Shown: positions 5,924 to 11,760, numbered from the stretch's first letter. The stretch is 23,522 nucleotides of DNA from an uncultured archaeon (GCA_964510585.1 CAZECW010000209.1:1-23522); one strand, 5' to 3'. The notes: generated by a model from the sequence alone, not told the origin. Made by a program: numbers and translations.

Positions 5924-6787
5924 TTATTTTGAACCATTCCCTCGGAATAGATTTAAAACTGCAAGGGCTGCAGCCACCGCTTCCTCAGTCCTAACAGTTC
6001 TTGTCCCTTGAGAAGGTATGAAGTTTACCATAAAATCCCCTACCTCCTCTGGAGTTACCCCCTCATCCTCAAGAATTTCTCTCAAACCCCGATGGGGCCC
6101 GCCAAAAATTAAGAAAAGTCTTCCCATGCGCCTCCACCCATCCAAAATCTGCTCCGAAACACTCCTAAACGTAACCCCATACTTGGAGGTCAAAACAATC
6201 AACCCAGGGCGAAGATGCTTGAGAATCGAAGCTAAAGAACCCTTCAAAATTCTAACTTCATAACCCCAATAAGTTTTAACCTCACTACGGTTAACCCTCT
6301 CTAGGTACAGTTTATCATCTTTCATAACTACTCTCACAGTAACCCGAGTACCCTCAGGCAAACTTGCCCCGAGAAGCCTTTGAGGTTGCTCTACTCCAAT
6401 ATCCACCAAGCATCCCCGAGGATCACTTTTAACAACTACACCTTCTCGGAACTCCCCATCCTGCAGCCCACTCTTCCTACTTTTAAGGGGATGGTGAGGC
6501 GATGCTAGAGGGGGAAGAATTCCGGCATACCTTAAACGGGGAGAAGAAGGAATAAGACGCTTCCTCAAATACTGAGGCGTCTCCATGTAGTCCAAAACCT
6601 CCTTAACAAGAACTAGATCTTCTCTCTGCTTATCGAAGGAATAATCAGCATAAAGTAGCACCTCCGATACTCTATAAATGGCAGCTAAACGACCTATCTG
6701 CCCCACCTTCAAAGTCTTAAGTCTCAAATCGGGAGCGTCAGCCACCAAGGATCCAGGAAGGACAAGGCTAATCTCCATGATACTCAA
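5924..6787 (-). CDS. putative SPOUT RNA methyltransferase (DUF171/COG2106, SPOUT1/C9orf114 homolog)
   Basis: KVGQIGRLAAIYRV, YMETPQYLRK, AGILPPL..PHH, FREGVV, inserted OB-like domain, FGGP.RGL and NFIPSQGTRTVRTEEA knot motif. Confidence 0.9.
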   Translation of the reverse strand: MSIMEISLVLPGSLVADAPDLRLKTLKVGQIGRLAAIYRVSEVLLYADYSFDKQREDLVLVKEVLDYMETPQYLRKRLIPSSPRLRYAGILPPLASPHHPLKSRKSGLQDGEFREGVVVKSDPRGCLVDIGVEQPQRLLGASLPEGTRVTVRVVMKDDKLYLERVNRSEVKTYWGYEVRILKGSLASILKHLRPGLIVLTSKYGVTFRSVSEQILDGWRRMGRLFLIFGGPHRGLREILEDEGVTPEEVGDFMVNFIPSQGTRTVRTEEAVAAALAVLNLFRGNGSK

Positions 6788-7109: not shown

Positions 7110-7231
7110 ACCTAAATGGGAAACGATAAGCTATTTAGAGTGTGTAGAAAATTATACACAAGAGTTACATAAAGTTTTTGTTTCCATTTCTCTCGAGCTA
7201 CAATAAGGGAACATAGATAGGGAAACGCCAT

Positions 7232-7244
7232 AAAAATTAAAAAA
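7232..7244 (-). terminator. oligo-T terminator of the 5S rRNA transcript
   Basis: On the minus strand a pyrimidine tract CTTCCTTCTCTCTGC followed by TTTTTTAATTTTT lies directly after the 3' arm of the processing stem. Confidence 0.6.
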
Positions 7245-7271
7245 GCAGAGAGAAGGAAGTGGCGTCGCTGT

Positions 7272-7394
7272 TCCGTGTTCGGGATGAGAACGGGTAGTTC
7301 ACTATACACTATGACCGGCACCGAGATGCCAGTATTCGGTTTTCCCGGTCCCTCGCGGAGAGCAGTACTCACCGAATCGTGTATAGATTTGACT
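7272..7394 (-). rRNA. rrf: circularly permuted 5S rRNA gene: 3' half 7394-7327, linker 7326-7321, 5' half 7320-7272; precursor with BHB stem 7410-7261
   Basis: Joining 7272 to 7394 gives a 117-nt 5S: TGCCGGTCATAGTGTATAGTGAACTACCCGTTCTCATCCCGAACACGGA|AGTCAAATCTATACACGATTCGGTGAGTACTGCTCTCCGCGAGGGACCGGGAAAACCGAATACTGGCA. It has helix I TGCCGGT/ACTGGCA, helix II GTGTATAG/CTATACAC, helix III ACCCGT/ACGGAAGT, loop C CATCCCGAAC, ATTCGG/CCGAAT, loop E AGTA/GAA and a GCGA tetraloop. Confidence 0.93.
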
Positions 7395-7433
7395 TTCACG
7401 CAACGACGCCAAAAACCCACACGCAGTGCCGAA

Positions 7434-7447
7434 ATATAAATATTTCT
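7434..7447 (-). promoter_or_regulatory. BRE-TATA promoter of the permuted 5S gene
   Basis: AGAAATA-TTTATAT on the minus strand. Spacing places the start at or near G7410, the first base of the processing stem. Confidence 0.7.
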
Positions 7448-7723
7448 AACTTCTAACAGTTATACTGTTAAAGCAATTCAACCTTTCAAATCTATCACAC
7501 TAAGCCTGAAAATGTCGAGACTTAACCTACATTCACAAAGGTAAAAGGAATTTATCAAGCAGATATTTTGCGCCAAATAAATTTTTTACTAGAGCTCTCT
7601 AACCTGACGAATTTTTTGACGTTTGATACACGATTTTTTGAAAATTTCCAAGAAATTAATAGGGATAACTCAAAAATGCACGAATTTAGGCATGTTTTTT
7701 TATTGTAAGAGGCATAATACGAT

Positions 7724-8315: not shown

Positions 8316-8418
8316 TATTTCGTTCAAAAGTTTGTTAGTGTTATCCGTTGGTCTCTGTGGTTGTTTGAATGTTGTTCATCTATTGTTTGTAGCTTTTATT
8401 TTTTGAGAAGTGGTTATT

Positions 8419-11400
8419 ATGTCTGATGTTGAGCAGATTGATGGTTGGCGTGTTATTGAGGCTTTTATTGAGGAGAATGGTCTGGTTCGTCAACATTTAG
8501 ATTCTTACAATGAGTTCATTAAACATGGCCTACAGCAGATTGTGGATGAGGTTGGCAAAATTGAGCCTGAGGGCGAGAACTACTACGTTAAACTGGGTAA
8601 GATTGATGTGGGTAAGCCTACCATAAAAGAGGCTGACGGCTCCACCATGCCTGTTTTTCCCAACGAGGCTAGGATCCGCAATTTGACTTACGCGGCTAAT
8701 TTACATTTGGAAATGACCATAGTTTATAATGATGATAGGGGAGGTGGGACTGAGGATGCAACAACTGAGGTTTATATTGGCCGCCTTCCTATTATGCTCA
8801 AGTCCGAAAAGTGTCCTCTGTCCCAGTTAAGTAGAGAGGAGCTCATCACTCTAGGCGAGGATCCAGATGATCCGGGAGGCTACTTTATTATTAATGGCAG
8901 TGAAAGGGTTCTGGTTACTCAGGAGGATCTGGCGCCTAACCGTATTCTCATTGAGGTGGCCAATAAGAGTAGCTCGTCTACACATGTAGCTAAAGTGTTT
9001 AGTACAGCTCAGGGTTTCAGAGCACCTGTGACCATGGAGCGGCGGCGTGACGGTTCTCTAAGGGTTTCATTCCCCTCTGTTCCGGGGAAGATTCCACTAT
9101 TTGTTTTGATTCGCGCCCTTGGACTGGAAACCGATAAACAGATTGTAGACATTATTTCTGACGATGAAGAGATAATTCGGGAGCTTATTCCCTCTATTGA
9201 GATGGCGGCTCCCATTATTTCTCGTGATGATGCACTAGACTTTATTGGTAAACGTGTGGCTGTAGGCCAGACTAGGGATTATCGTTTGAAGAGAGCAGAA
9301 CAAGTGTTAGACCGTTACCTTCTCCCACACATCGGCACCACACCTAAGGATCGATTAAGAAAGGCATTCTACCTGGGCCAGATGGCCTCACGTATTATAG
9401 AGTTGGCTCTTGGTAGAAGAAGCGAGGATGACAAAGACCACTATTCTAATAAGAGGTTAAAGCTCGCGGGAGACCTTTTAATGAGTTTGTTCCGGGTGGC
9501 CTTTCTCAGCCTCTGCAGGGATATAAAATACCAGTTGGAGAGAAACGCTGTTAGAGGCAGACGTAGAAACATTAAGACCGCGGTTCGTGCAGATGTGATT
9601 ACAGACCGATTACACCATGCACTTGCAACCGGCAACTGGGTCGGGGGAAAAGCAGGGGTGAGTCAGCTCCTAGATAGAACCAACTACATGTCTGCATTAA
9701 GCCACCTACGGAGAGTGGTCTCGCCTCTGAGCAGAAGCCAACCCCACTTTGAAGCGCGTGACCTACATCCTACCCACTGGGGCAAAATATGCCCAAACGA
9801 AACTCCAGAAGGGCCTAACTGTGGTCTGGTCAAAAACTTGGCGCTACTAGCCTACATATCGGTAGGTGCAGACGAGGCGGAAGTGGAAAGCATATTCGTA
9901 GACCTTGGCGTTCAGCCCGTAGAGGAACTAGAGGGAATGAAGGGAGTTAAGGGAGCTCAAGTCTACCTTAACGGTCGACTAATAGGAGTGCATCAACAAC
10001 CATTAGCCTTTCTTGCAGAAGTTAAGAAGAGAAGGAGAAGCGGCCAGATAACCAACGAAGTTAATATCGCTTACTATCCCGATACCAACGAGATACAGGC
10101 TAACTGCGACGCTGGACGCGCCCGACGCCCTCTGATAATAGTGGAAAACGGAGTGCCGAAACTCACCTCTGAACATATTGCAAAACTCAGAAGCAAAGAA
10201 TGGAAGTTTAGTGACCTCATCCGTAGAGGTATCGTAGAGTTCTTAGACGCAGAAGAAGAGGAGAATTCACACATTGCAATGTATCCTAAAGACATAAACG
10301 AGAAAACTACCCACCTAGAAATTGCGCCAAGCTCAATATTAGGAATCTCTGCAAGCATAATTCCCTATCCTGAACATAACCAAAGCCCCAGAAATACCTA
10401 TGAAGCAGGGATGGTTAAACAAGCTCTAGGACTCTACGCTGCAAACTACAGGACGCGAGCAGACACGAGAGCCCACCTACTGCATTATCCACAAGTACCC
10501 ATAGTAAACACTAAAGCCACTATGCCTACTGGATTCGATAAAAGACCCGCGGGACAAAACTTCATAGTAGCAGTGCTATCCTATGAAGGGTACAACATAG
10601 AAGATGCCATAATAATTAACAAGGCCTCCATAGAGAGAGGACTCGGGAGAAGCACATTTTTCAGAAGCTACGAAGCTGAGGAGAGAAAATATCCCGGAGG
10701 GCAAGAAGATAAATTTGAGATACCCGACAAAAGCGTTAGAGGATACCGCGCCGCAGAAGCCTATCGCCACCTATCTGATGATGGCATAATCGAGCCCGAA
10801 GTTGAAGTCCAGGGTGGCGAAATAATAATTGGGAGAACAAGCCCACCCCGGTTCCTAGAGGAGGAAGCAGGGTTTGAAATGCCCACCCAAATCCGAAGAG
10901 AAACATCAACTAGTATGCGCCACGGAGAAACAGGAATAGTAGACACTGTATCAATAACTGAAACCATAGATGGAAACACTCTAGTCAAAGTAAAAATCAG
11001 AGACCAACGCATCCCAGAACTCGGAGATAAATTCGCCACAAGACATGGACAAAAGGGAATAATTGGGCTAATAGTACCCCAAGAAGACATGCCCTTTACA
11101 GAGGAAGGCATAGTACCAGACCTTATAGTCAACCCTCATGCTATACCCTCCAGAATGACCCTTGGACAAGTAATAGAATCGATAGCCGGAAAAGTAGGAG
11201 CACTCGGTGGAAGAAAAGTCGATGGAACTGCATTCAGCGGTGAACCCGTCAAAAAATTGTACCAAGAGCTAATTCAAAGGGGCTACAAATACAACGGCAG
11301 AGAAGTTATGTACAATGGGATAACTGGAAGAAAATACGAAGCGGACATATTCATAGGGGTAGTCTATTACCAAAAACTGCACCACATGGTAGCAGATAAA

Positions 11401-11760
11401 ATACATGCAAGAGCAAGGGGACCGGTACAAATACTTACAAGACAACCCACAGAAGGACGAGCCCGAGAAGGAGGGCTTAGATTCGGGGAAATGGAACGAG
11501 ACTGCCTAATTGGCCACGGAGCAGCTCTTCTCCTGAAGGAGAAGCTGGTTGAGGAGTCGGACAAGACCACCACTCTTGTGTGCGAAGAATGTGGTATGCT
11601 CGCTGTCTACGACAAGAACAAGGGCCGCTACTATTGTCCACTTTGTGGCGAGGACACTCGTGTAGCTAAGGTCAATATGAGCTACGCTTTCAAACTTTTA
11701 TTACAGGAGCTTATGGCCTTAGGTATTGCTCCGCGCCTCAAGCTCGCGGAGAAGACCTAA
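8419..11760 (+). CDS. rpo2: DNA-directed RNA polymerase subunit B (Rpo2), unsplit B''+B' form
   Basis: About 1113 aa with GGYFIINGSERV, HPTHWGKICPNETPEGPNCGLVKNL, PEHNQSPRN, GDKFATRHGQKG, NPHAIPSRMT, GGLRFGEMERDC and a C-terminal Zn ribbon (CEECG...CPLC). ATG 8419 is preferred over GTG 8410. Confidence 0.99.
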   Translation: MSDVEQIDGWRVIEAFIEENGLVRQHLDSYNEFIKHGLQQIVDEVGKIEPEGENYYVKLGKIDVGKPTIKEADGSTMPVFPNEARIRNLTYAANLHLEMTIVYNDDRGGGTEDATTEVYIGRLPIMLKSEKCPLSQLSREELITLGEDPDDPGGYFIINGSERVLVTQEDLAPNRILIEVANKSSSSTHVAKVFSTAQGFRAPVTMERRRDGSLRVSFPSVPGKIPLFVLIRALGLETDKQIVDIISDDEEIIRELIPSIEMAAPIISRDDALDFIGKRVAVGQTRDYRLKRAEQVLDRYLLPHIGTTPKDRLRKAFYLGQMASRIIELALGRRSEDDKDHYSNKRLKLAGDLLMSLFRVAFLSLCRDIKYQLERNAVRGRRRNIKTAVRADVITDRLHHALATGNWVGGKAGVSQLLDRTNYMSALSHLRRVVSPLSRSQPHFEARDLHPTHWGKICPNETPEGPNCGLVKNLALLAYISVGADEAEVESIFVDLGVQPVEELEGMKGVKGAQVYLNGRLIGVHQQPLAFLAEVKKRRRSGQITNEVNIAYYPDTNEIQANCDAGRARRPLIIVENGVPKLTSEHIAKLRSKEWKFSDLIRRGIVEFLDAEEEENSHIAMYPKDINEKTTHLEIAPSSILGISASIIPYPEHNQSPRNTYEAGMVKQALGLYAANYRTRADTRAHLLHYPQVPIVNTKATMPTGFDKRPAGQNFIVAVLSYEGYNIEDAIIINKASIERGLGRSTFFRSYEAEERKYPGGQEDKFEIPDKSVRGYRAAEAYRHLSDDGIIEPEVEVQGGEIIIGRTSPPRFLEEEAGFEMPTQIRRETSTSMRHGETGIVDTVSITETIDGNTLVKVKIRDQRIPELGDKFATRHGQKGIIGLIVPQEDMPFTEEGIVPDLIVNPHAIPSRMTLGQVIESIAGKVGALGGRKVDGTAFSGEPVKKLYQELIQRGYKYNGREVMYNGITGRKYEADIFIGVVYYQKLHHMVADKIHARARGPVQILTRQPTEGRAREGGLRFGEMERDCLIGHGAALLLKEKLVEESDKTTTLVCEECGMLAVYDKNKGRYYCPLCGEDTRVAKVNMSYAFKLLLQELMALGIAPRLKLAEKT

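Follow-up and report, generated by a model that had tools for sequence, protein, structure and literature searches.

The 23,522-nt stretch of DNA analysed here (CAZECW010000209.1:1-23522 of assembly GCA_964510585.1; hereafter the window) comes from an Asgard archaeon (Jordarchaeia/Freyarchaeia) and carries, on the minus strand of 7260-7411, a 5S ribosomal RNA (rRNA) gene that is built back to front: the segment for the 3' part of the molecule lies upstream of the segment for its 5' part. Judged from the organism's own assembly and a closed genome of the same genus, this circularly permuted unit is its only 5S rRNA gene, and we consider it highly probable that the product is restored, as a closed ring, by cutting at a bulge-helix-bulge (BHB) motif followed by ligation.

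The processing route we propose runs as follows. From a putative promoter the unit would be transcribed independently into an RNA of ~170 nt, extending from ~7410 to the T-runs near 7240 and comprising the 5S 3' part, a hairpin that seals helix I and the 5S 5' part. Its leader and trailer would pair into an 11-bp stem, which together with a 4-bp helix and two 3-nt bulges makes up the BHB; the candidate endonuclease EndA would cut past the second nucleotide of each bulge and release a 123-nt piece, whose ends the candidate ligase RtcB would join. The joint would recreate the canonical ...CGGAAGUC... strand between helices III and II. Since that strand depends on the joint, the complete 5S fold is expected only after ligation, with a covalently closed ring as the presumed mature form.

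Gene order, predicted fold and splice motif

Read on the minus strand from 7411 to 7260, the locus consists of TGGCGTCGTTG, CGTG, AAA, 68 nt of the 5S 3' part, the loop UCUCGG, 49 nt of the 5S 5' part ending in CACG, GAA and CAGCGACGCCA (Table 1). Rfam at its gathering threshold finds no match anywhere in the window. With RF00001 the native locus gives a 25-nt partial match (7271-7295, helix III and loop C) of 21.7 bits against a gathering score of 38 bits, and no full-length match above that score, which is the expected outcome for a permuted gene. A profile hidden Markov model (HMM) of 22 collinear 5S genes (eight from Asgard relatives and 14 from other archaea), searched with nhmmer, matches the native locus twice and in inverted order: HMM positions 50-119 at 7395-7327 and positions 3-51 at 7320-7271. 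The re-permuted 123-mer (7394-7272 re-opened in the UCUCGG loop) gives one match instead, spanning HMM positions 3-119 (64.8 bits, E=1.2e-21) with no net insertion or deletion. The minimum free energy (MFE) fold of this re-permuted sequence is the canonical three-arm 5S structure with its three-way junction. Helices I, II, IV and V each have 5-7 pairs with changes on both sides, and helix III is the one matched by Rfam.

A preliminary description of this DNA had claimed halves of 68 and then 49 nt in inverted order on the minus strand, which both direct reading and the two profile matches bear out. It had expected two inverted partial matches natively and a single full one after re-permutation, as is now seen with nhmmer in place of Infernal, and it had held that the ends join with no base gained or lost, in agreement with the full-length match. 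Its statement that the joint restores a conserved 5S motif needs one amendment: the sequence restored is canonical 5S, but the joint lies just 3' of helix III, on the loop B strand toward helix II, and not in loop C.

The archaeal splicing endonuclease cuts after the second nucleotide of each BHB bulge. This rule predicts cuts at 7395/7394 and 7272/7271, a 123-nt product and the joined ends ...CACGGA+AGTCAAAT (also written ...CACGGA+AGUCAAAU). From 5' to 3', both strands of the motif run helix, 4-bp helix, 3-nt bulge, helix, so that the two bulges stand on opposite strands and each lies 3' of the central helix. The geometry is that of the tRNA intron at position 37/38, with the difference that the exon positions are occupied here by leader and trailer and the intron position by the 5S. 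The CGTG/CACG central helix and the AAA and GAA bulges are present as first described; the enclosing stem is likewise present, at 11 bp including one U.G rather than at the 10 bp initially given.

Three nucleotides in the 3' strand of the central BHB helix (7277-7274) also belong to the 3' strand of helix III. Because of this overlap the BHB and helix III are alternative conformers: the BHB conformer lies 0.2 kcal/mol above the MFE structure in the window's own sequence and is thus accessible.

Table 1. Parts of the permuted 5S rRNA unit in the window and the basis on which each was assigned.
Feature	Position	Strand	Basis and remarks
TATA-like box TTTATATT with preceding A-rich BRE-like (B recognition element) AGAAA	7433-7440	-	Read directly; putative promoter, start expected at ~7411-7409
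Outer (leader/trailer) stem, 5' strand TGGCGTCGTTG	7401-7411	-	11 contiguous pairs with 7260-7270, one U.G at 7403/7268
Central BHB helix, 5' strand CGTG	7397-7400	-	Pairs with CACG 7274-7277, 4 perfect pairs
5' bulge AAA	7394-7396	-	Predicted cut 7395/7394 (canonical BHB rule)
Excised segment, 123 nt; end-to-end joining would give the complete 5S sequence	7272-7394	-	Predicted cuts and profile match
5S 3' part: 3' strand of helix II, helices V and IV, loops E and D, 3' strand of helix I	7327-7394	-	nhmmer, HMM 50-119; helices covary
Loop UCUCGG sealing helix I and linking the conventional 3' and 5' ends of 5S	7321-7326	-	Sequence and fold
5S 5' part: 5' strands of helices I and II, helix III, loop C	7272-7320	-	Rfam partial match 7271-7295; nhmmer, HMM 3-51
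Central BHB helix, 3' strand CACG, overlapping 3' strand of 5S helix III	7274-7277	-	Rfam match and BHB reading
3' bulge GAA	7271-7273	-	Predicted cut 7272/7271
Outer stem, 3' strand CAGCGACGCCA	7260-7270	-	Pairing and covariation
Two T-runs, TTTTTT (7244-7239) and TTTTT (7236-7232)	7232-7244	-	Read directly; likely archaeal terminator

A TATA-type signal placing the start near 7410 and an oligo-T stretch had been proposed at the outset; both signals are present, as a putative promoter and terminator. TATA-like boxes stand at a similar upstream distance in most of 17 related units and T-runs follow most of them, a pattern that fits a short, independent transcription unit with a predicted promoter of its own. 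An open reading frame of 102 aa on the minus strand (7112-7420) overlaps the unit; it has no Pfam match and was taken as spurious. The neighbouring genes encode a putative RNA methyltransferase (5924-6787, minus strand; Methyltrn_RNA_3, E=6e-62) and RNA polymerase subunit B (8410-11760, plus strand; Rpb2 domains 1-7). Within the 23.5 kb of the window there is no linkage of the 5S unit to 16S or 23S rRNA, and ARAGORN finds no tRNA genes.

Single copy, conservation and distribution in Asgard archaea

The source assembly is a metagenome-assembled genome (MAG) of 217 contigs and 3.78 Mb, 96% complete. We searched it, as one of 151 Asgard genomes, with RF00001 and with R1, a covariance model of the permuted 5S built from 17 units. 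Each of the two models matches this locus only, and no second 5S is found in the assembly. In a congener with a closed, single-contig genome of 3.6 Mb (G005), R1 has one match of 117 bits and RF00001 has none above the cut-off. A collinear 5S copy, raised in the preliminary description as a possible source of all ribosomal 5S, is thus found in neither genome, an indirect indication that the unit may supply the 5S of the large ribosomal subunit. The same permuted order recurs in four other species of the genus, G005 among them, in keeping with the expectation that relatives would share it. As for misassembly, an early concern, it is excluded by independent DNA contigs that are collinear with 7150-7455 and show the window's own order. 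These contigs measure 1,439 and 15,662 nt, stem from two DNA runs on hot-spring material (X14 and X15) and differ from the window, as a strain variant, by 7 substitutions and 3 deletions of one base each.

The BHB was compared across 18 units from Jord-, Baldr-, Njord- and other lineages. All 18 share its geometry, with a central helix of 3-4 bp, both bulges of 3 nt and the predicted joint C.CGGAAG..AAG. The outer stems measure 5-16 bp (at least 11 bp in 17 of the 18), and their sequences are unrelated outside near-identical congeners. Relative to the 5S, the register of the BHB is shifted by 1 nt in the 3' direction in Njord-type as against Jord/Baldr-type lineages, with the joint unchanged. 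Covariation was computed on a MAFFT alignment of 17 lineages trimmed to equivalent ends (A2). Here 86.8% of the cells pair, versus 60.2% in shuffled alignments and ~51% when slid by one column; the covariation score is 0.694 versus 0.229 in the shuffles, and none of 500 shuffles reaches the observed value of any of five pairing measures. All 11 outer-stem pairs have changes on both sides. These values understate the pairing, as a single consensus structure cannot carry both BHB registers and four Jord/Baldr rows are scored as unpaired in helix 1. The hairpin sealing helix I has a 6-nt loop on 7 bp in the window and up to ~11 extra pairs elsewhere, with variable yet covarying sequence, and no conserved motif that a nuclease might recognise is found in it across the compared lineages.

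All four sequencing runs (X14 and X15 and the two runs treated below) carry plus-strand A>G changes at 7403 and 7413. The former, T7403C on the gene's strand, turns the U.G of the outer stem into C-G, as in the congener G001, and is strain-level variation that leaves the outer stem intact.

Beyond the genus, permuted units are found in Jordarchaeia/Freyarchaeia (QZM_A3, SQRJ_82 and Jordarchaeum madagascariense), Baldrarchaeia, Njordarchaeia and MAGs filed under non-Asgard or generic labels. R1 matches 106 of the 151 Asgard genomes; 22 of these matches are weak (26-41 bits) and overlap ordinary 5S genes, and the permuted gene is present in ~84 genomes, distributed over 21 of 27 family codes. 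RF00001 scores above its cut-off in 48 genomes, restricted to families f7, f10, f12, f16, f23 and f26. As no family has both gene types, the permuted gene replaces the normal 5S rather than being added to it. Two closed Atabeyarchaeia genomes (2,808,651 and 2,756,679 bp) are among its carriers. A sequence-pattern scan of genome contigs returned 117 stretches, of which 16 are truly permuted, all from Asgard or mislabelled Asgard-like MAGs. Most of the 117 were set aside as collinear 5S genes (Collinsella, Treponema, Actinomycetota, haloarchaea and others) with a chance GAGTA at the right upstream distance.

Some family-specific features were also observed. In family f9 the R1 matches extend over 173-181 nt as against ~150 nt, at lower scores of 53-63 bits (G017:C88:187-367, G027:C158:18818-18997, G116, G137, G037 and G098), which points to extra sequence, perhaps an intron, inserted into the permuted 5S. 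Multiple R1 copies occur in G110 (four) and in G034, G076 and G086 (two each); several of those in G110 lie at contig ends, suggesting a repeat that breaks the assembly. In f12 genomes with a normal 5S (L004, L005 and L006), a tRNA-like 3' end (...GGTTCGAATC...CCA) lies ~70-80 nt upstream of the 5S, unlike the stand-alone permuted units.

This record bears directly on the notion that the locus is a dead, rearranged 5S relic or an assembly chimera, with the working 5S hidden in the unassembled 4% of the genome. The failure of Rfam to find anything above threshold in the window and the fragmentation of the MAG into 217 contigs are both in its favour. However, the closed congener has only the permuted gene, the layout recurs across 21 family codes (~84 genomes) and every helix shows compensatory changes, the independent DNA contigs agree with the assembly, and the unit has promoter-like and terminator-like signals of its own. 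We regard this explanation as scarcely credible.

The joined form, candidate enzymes and the mature molecule

The evidence for the joint consists of contigs, not reads, and comes from one hot-spring study. Two of its runs, X1 and X2, are deposited as METATRANSCRIPTOMIC/WGS (whole-genome shotgun) and yet flagged 'RNA? (probably DNA)'; the DNA runs X14 and X15 belong to the same study. Among the sequencing runs that contain the unit, none is on record as RNA. Of the words sampled from the 131-nt inner unit, all or 0.91 occur in X1 and X2, versus 0.44 and 0.38 of those from the surrounding 371-nt stretch. Contig 10 of X2 is 153 nt long and free of mismatches; it runs from 7366 to 7393 and continues with 7271-7395. 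Its initial and final 30 nt are identical, and it hence represents a closed 123-nt cycle in the k=31 graph. In X1, a 58-nt unitig spans the joint (28 nt + 30 nt), and a 125-nt unitig covers 7271-7395 between the two branch points. The joint in these contigs is 7271/7393, in RNA sense ...CACGGAA/GUCAAAU, an exact match to prediction: because of a shared AA it denotes the same product as would arise from the predicted EndA cuts. The junction that was to be sought in transcript data, given as CACGGA/AGTCAA in the preliminary description, is thus spanned, as CACGGAA/GTCAAAT, by contigs of both runs labelled metatranscriptomic but flagged as probably DNA. The joint is not found in the DNA runs X14 and X15, which contain the genomic order only.

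The same two samples contain a contig of 124 nt from a related species (record 5 in X1, record 11 in X2), which aligns to window positions 7308-7380 with 7 differences over 73 nt and reaches depths of 57 and 29, above those of the window's own form. It begins AAGTTAAGCCC... and ends ...CCGAAC, representing a second permuted 5S unit of like layout.

Several observations nevertheless weigh against restoration by cutting and ligation, or at least against a lasting ring. X1 and X2 have contigs of up to 80 kb as well as one of 370 nt that extends past the putative promoter by 280 nt on its upstream side, and they therefore contain DNA or read-through. The depths in X1 (17 for the unit, 7.3 for the joint and 7.6 for the trailer), which are sums over contigs of several organisms and were not used to rank expression, could be accounted for as well by a strain whose DNA carries the unit twice in tandem. 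Contigs cannot reveal RNA ends, and a ring and a re-opened molecule look alike in them. In the motif itself the inner helix, already called imperfect in the preliminary description, is weak, with two of its four positions paired (G.A, U-A, C-G) beside an outer helix of 11 bp; and the central helix is in competition with helix III, at a cost to the BHB conformer that amounts to 1.6-8 kcal/mol in other lineages. No conclusion was drawn from stretches lacking coverage, e.g. 7189-7253 in X2 and, across all runs, 7462-7520.

Taken at their most adverse, these points lead to an explanation without any ligation: the joint in X1 and X2 would derive from DNA, of a tandem-copy strain or a collinear gene, and the RNA would work as a permuted linear molecule with adjacent ends, as does the brown-algal mitochondrial 5S, which is permuted in its final product (PMC4267664). 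The 'probably DNA' flag and the roughly twofold depth of the unit in X1 over joint and trailer, fitting a tandem duplicate, are consistent with this. Against it, both libraries were deposited as METATRANSCRIPTOMIC; a DNA duplication would need breakpoints exactly at both predicted BHB cut sites; and the unit is single-copy in the X14 and X15 contigs and in five genus-level assemblies. Moreover, the 125-nt unitig lacks the extra branch expected from the flanks of a collinear gene, which excludes a mixture with such a gene. Finally, the BHB is conserved and covarying in every lineage, shifting in register and yet yielding the same joint, and would be purposeless without cutting and joining. Hence, we judge the absence of ligation very improbable.

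The enzymes that cutting and ligation would call for are encoded in the genome. EndA is present as two paralogues (192 and 198 aa), both of which combine an N-terminal with a catalytic C-terminal domain; one is closest to 3P1Z_B (E=2.8e-45), which we take to be the catalytic subunit of a crenarchaeal heterotetramer, and the other is closest to the Methanocaldococcus jannaschii enzyme. Two-subunit EndA enzymes accept relaxed BHBs; the motif here would be of that relaxed kind, and an EndA of the two-subunit type would fit its weak inner helix. RtcB is likewise encoded (E=1e-173). The rtcB frame (L033:1560-1600, contig C58 of G000) has an in-frame insert of ~30 nt with a TGA, placed inside the conserved PD-x-H-x-GYG motif (...LPDT*RESPHLREAHQGYGFPIGG), that looks like a BHB mini-intron of ~30 nt; if so, the mRNA of the ligase would itself need splicing. 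In the complete Freyarchaeia and Atabeyarchaeia genomes, 92-95% of the tRNA genes are intron-bearing (PMC11291895), indicating that the splicing machinery is heavily used in this group; ribosome biogenesis in such a lineage would depend on EndA and RtcB in addition.

If ligation takes place, what reaches the ribosome could be the ring itself or a linear molecule derived from it. In the latter case the ring would be an intermediate only: a nuclease would open the helix-I loop (7321-7326) and the ribosome would receive a conventional linear 5S, in the manner of the permuted tRNA genes of Cyanidioschyzon, which mature via a circular intermediate followed by end processing (Soma 2007, as cited in PMC4267664). 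Such re-opening is also compatible with the contig data. However, the sealing hairpin is free in length and sequence, covaries and has no conserved motif for a nuclease, which favours the ring, and the 125-nt unitig is unbroken through the loop in both X1 and X2. Precedent points the same way: circular signal recognition particle (SRP) RNA (PMC4731332) and circular 23S rRNA in archaeal ribosomes (PMC12918454) work as rings, and Escherichia coli ribosomes stay functional with a 5S in which a 4-nt connector bridges the native ends (PMC7283268), making a sealed helix I plausible. We moderately favour, given ligation, entry of the ring itself into the ribosome; on the same condition, re-opening in the helix-I loop is a possible though less probable outcome, and as an account of the locus overall we think a re-opened ring rather unlikely. 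The broadest form of the proposal is that the ribosomes of Jordarchaeia and of most Asgard lineages (by the count of ~84 in 151 genomes) contain a covalently closed circular 5S that only the tRNA-splicing machinery could make, and here we see the chances as evenly poised. Were it true, the archaea most closely related to eukaryotes could not assemble their ribosomes without EndA and RtcB.

Comparison with known permuted and circular RNAs

The 5S rRNA is usually treated as universal, easily recognised and not circularised in archaea: the archaeal gene has been called 'easily identified' (PMC4267664), and circularisation is stated to apply to 16S and 23S 'but not 5S rRNAs' (PMC12918454). Here, in contrast, it is unreadable to standard annotation, and more than half of the sampled Asgard genomes, closed ones included, share a 5S that would need RNA cutting and ligation for its functional fold. 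The permuted layout thereby offers an explanation for unannotated 5S genes in the Asgard phylum, and a covariance model such as R1 would let annotation pipelines detect them. A report on closed Freyarchaeia and Atabeyarchaeia genomes (PMC11291895) makes no mention of 5S rRNA. In a search of the full-text literature, which covered papers outside subscription-only access, no archaeon turned up for which a 5S gene that is permuted or circularised through a BHB had been described, and the novelty claimed for this gene in the preliminary description held up to that extent. The prediction that arises is a ring-shaped rRNA in a cellular ribosome.

Among collinear genes, a close parallel is offered by the archaeal 16S and 23S rRNAs: these likewise have a leader/trailer stem with a BHB. 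They are cut by EndA and ligated to a ring, and the ribosomes of some archaea contain this ring or a permuted derivative (PMC12918454). They differ in that their sequence order does not require circularisation. Closed 5S-derived RNAs have also been seen in archaea, as the circular 5S isoforms of Halobacterium and Sulfolobus (PMC12558985; Danan 2012, as cited there), but these have variable junctions, lack a BHB, arise from normal genes and were read as degradation products (PMC12558985). The brown-algal mitochondrial 5S (Valach et al., 2014; PMC4267664) similarly has helix I closed to a hairpin and its ends elsewhere; it is, however, organellar, has its ends at the three-way junction and remains permuted in the final product, with neither a BHB nor ligation (PMC4267664).

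The 5S unit conforms to the definition of a permuted gene, in which the 3' part lies upstream of the 5' part and a linker joins the native ends. Circularly permuted tRNA genes occur in Thermofilum pendens. Those of Cyanidioschyzon merolae (Soma et al., 2007, as cited in PMC4267664) resemble the unit in having the 3' half upstream and a BHB at the new ends, and they pass through a circular stage of the kind proposed for the 5S. Unlike the 5S proposed here, permuted tRNAs have their ring opened again by RNase P and tRNase Z, which act at the mature ends, while the linker of the 5S is a variable hairpin with no known processing signal; further, tRNAs form a multi-copy family, whereas the 5S gene is single.

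The SRP RNA of Thermoproteus tenax and T. uzoniensis (Plagens et al., 2015, eLife; PMC4731332) is likewise a stable structural RNA with swapped parts, in which the ring restores the fold and stays circular, and its gene, too, escaped standard searches. Its circularity, protein binding and endonuclease cleavage were shown experimentally (PMC4731332), whereas the junctions reported here are at the level of contigs. It is also a different RNA, and it belongs to one crenarchaeal genus as opposed to most of the Asgard lineages sampled here. Rescue of permuted genes through BHB cutting and ligation is a class of mechanism already known for tRNA and SRP RNA. What is new is its probable use for an rRNA and its spread through most of a phylum: with the 5S, rRNA would join the few kinds of RNA whose permuted genes rely on the splicing machinery.
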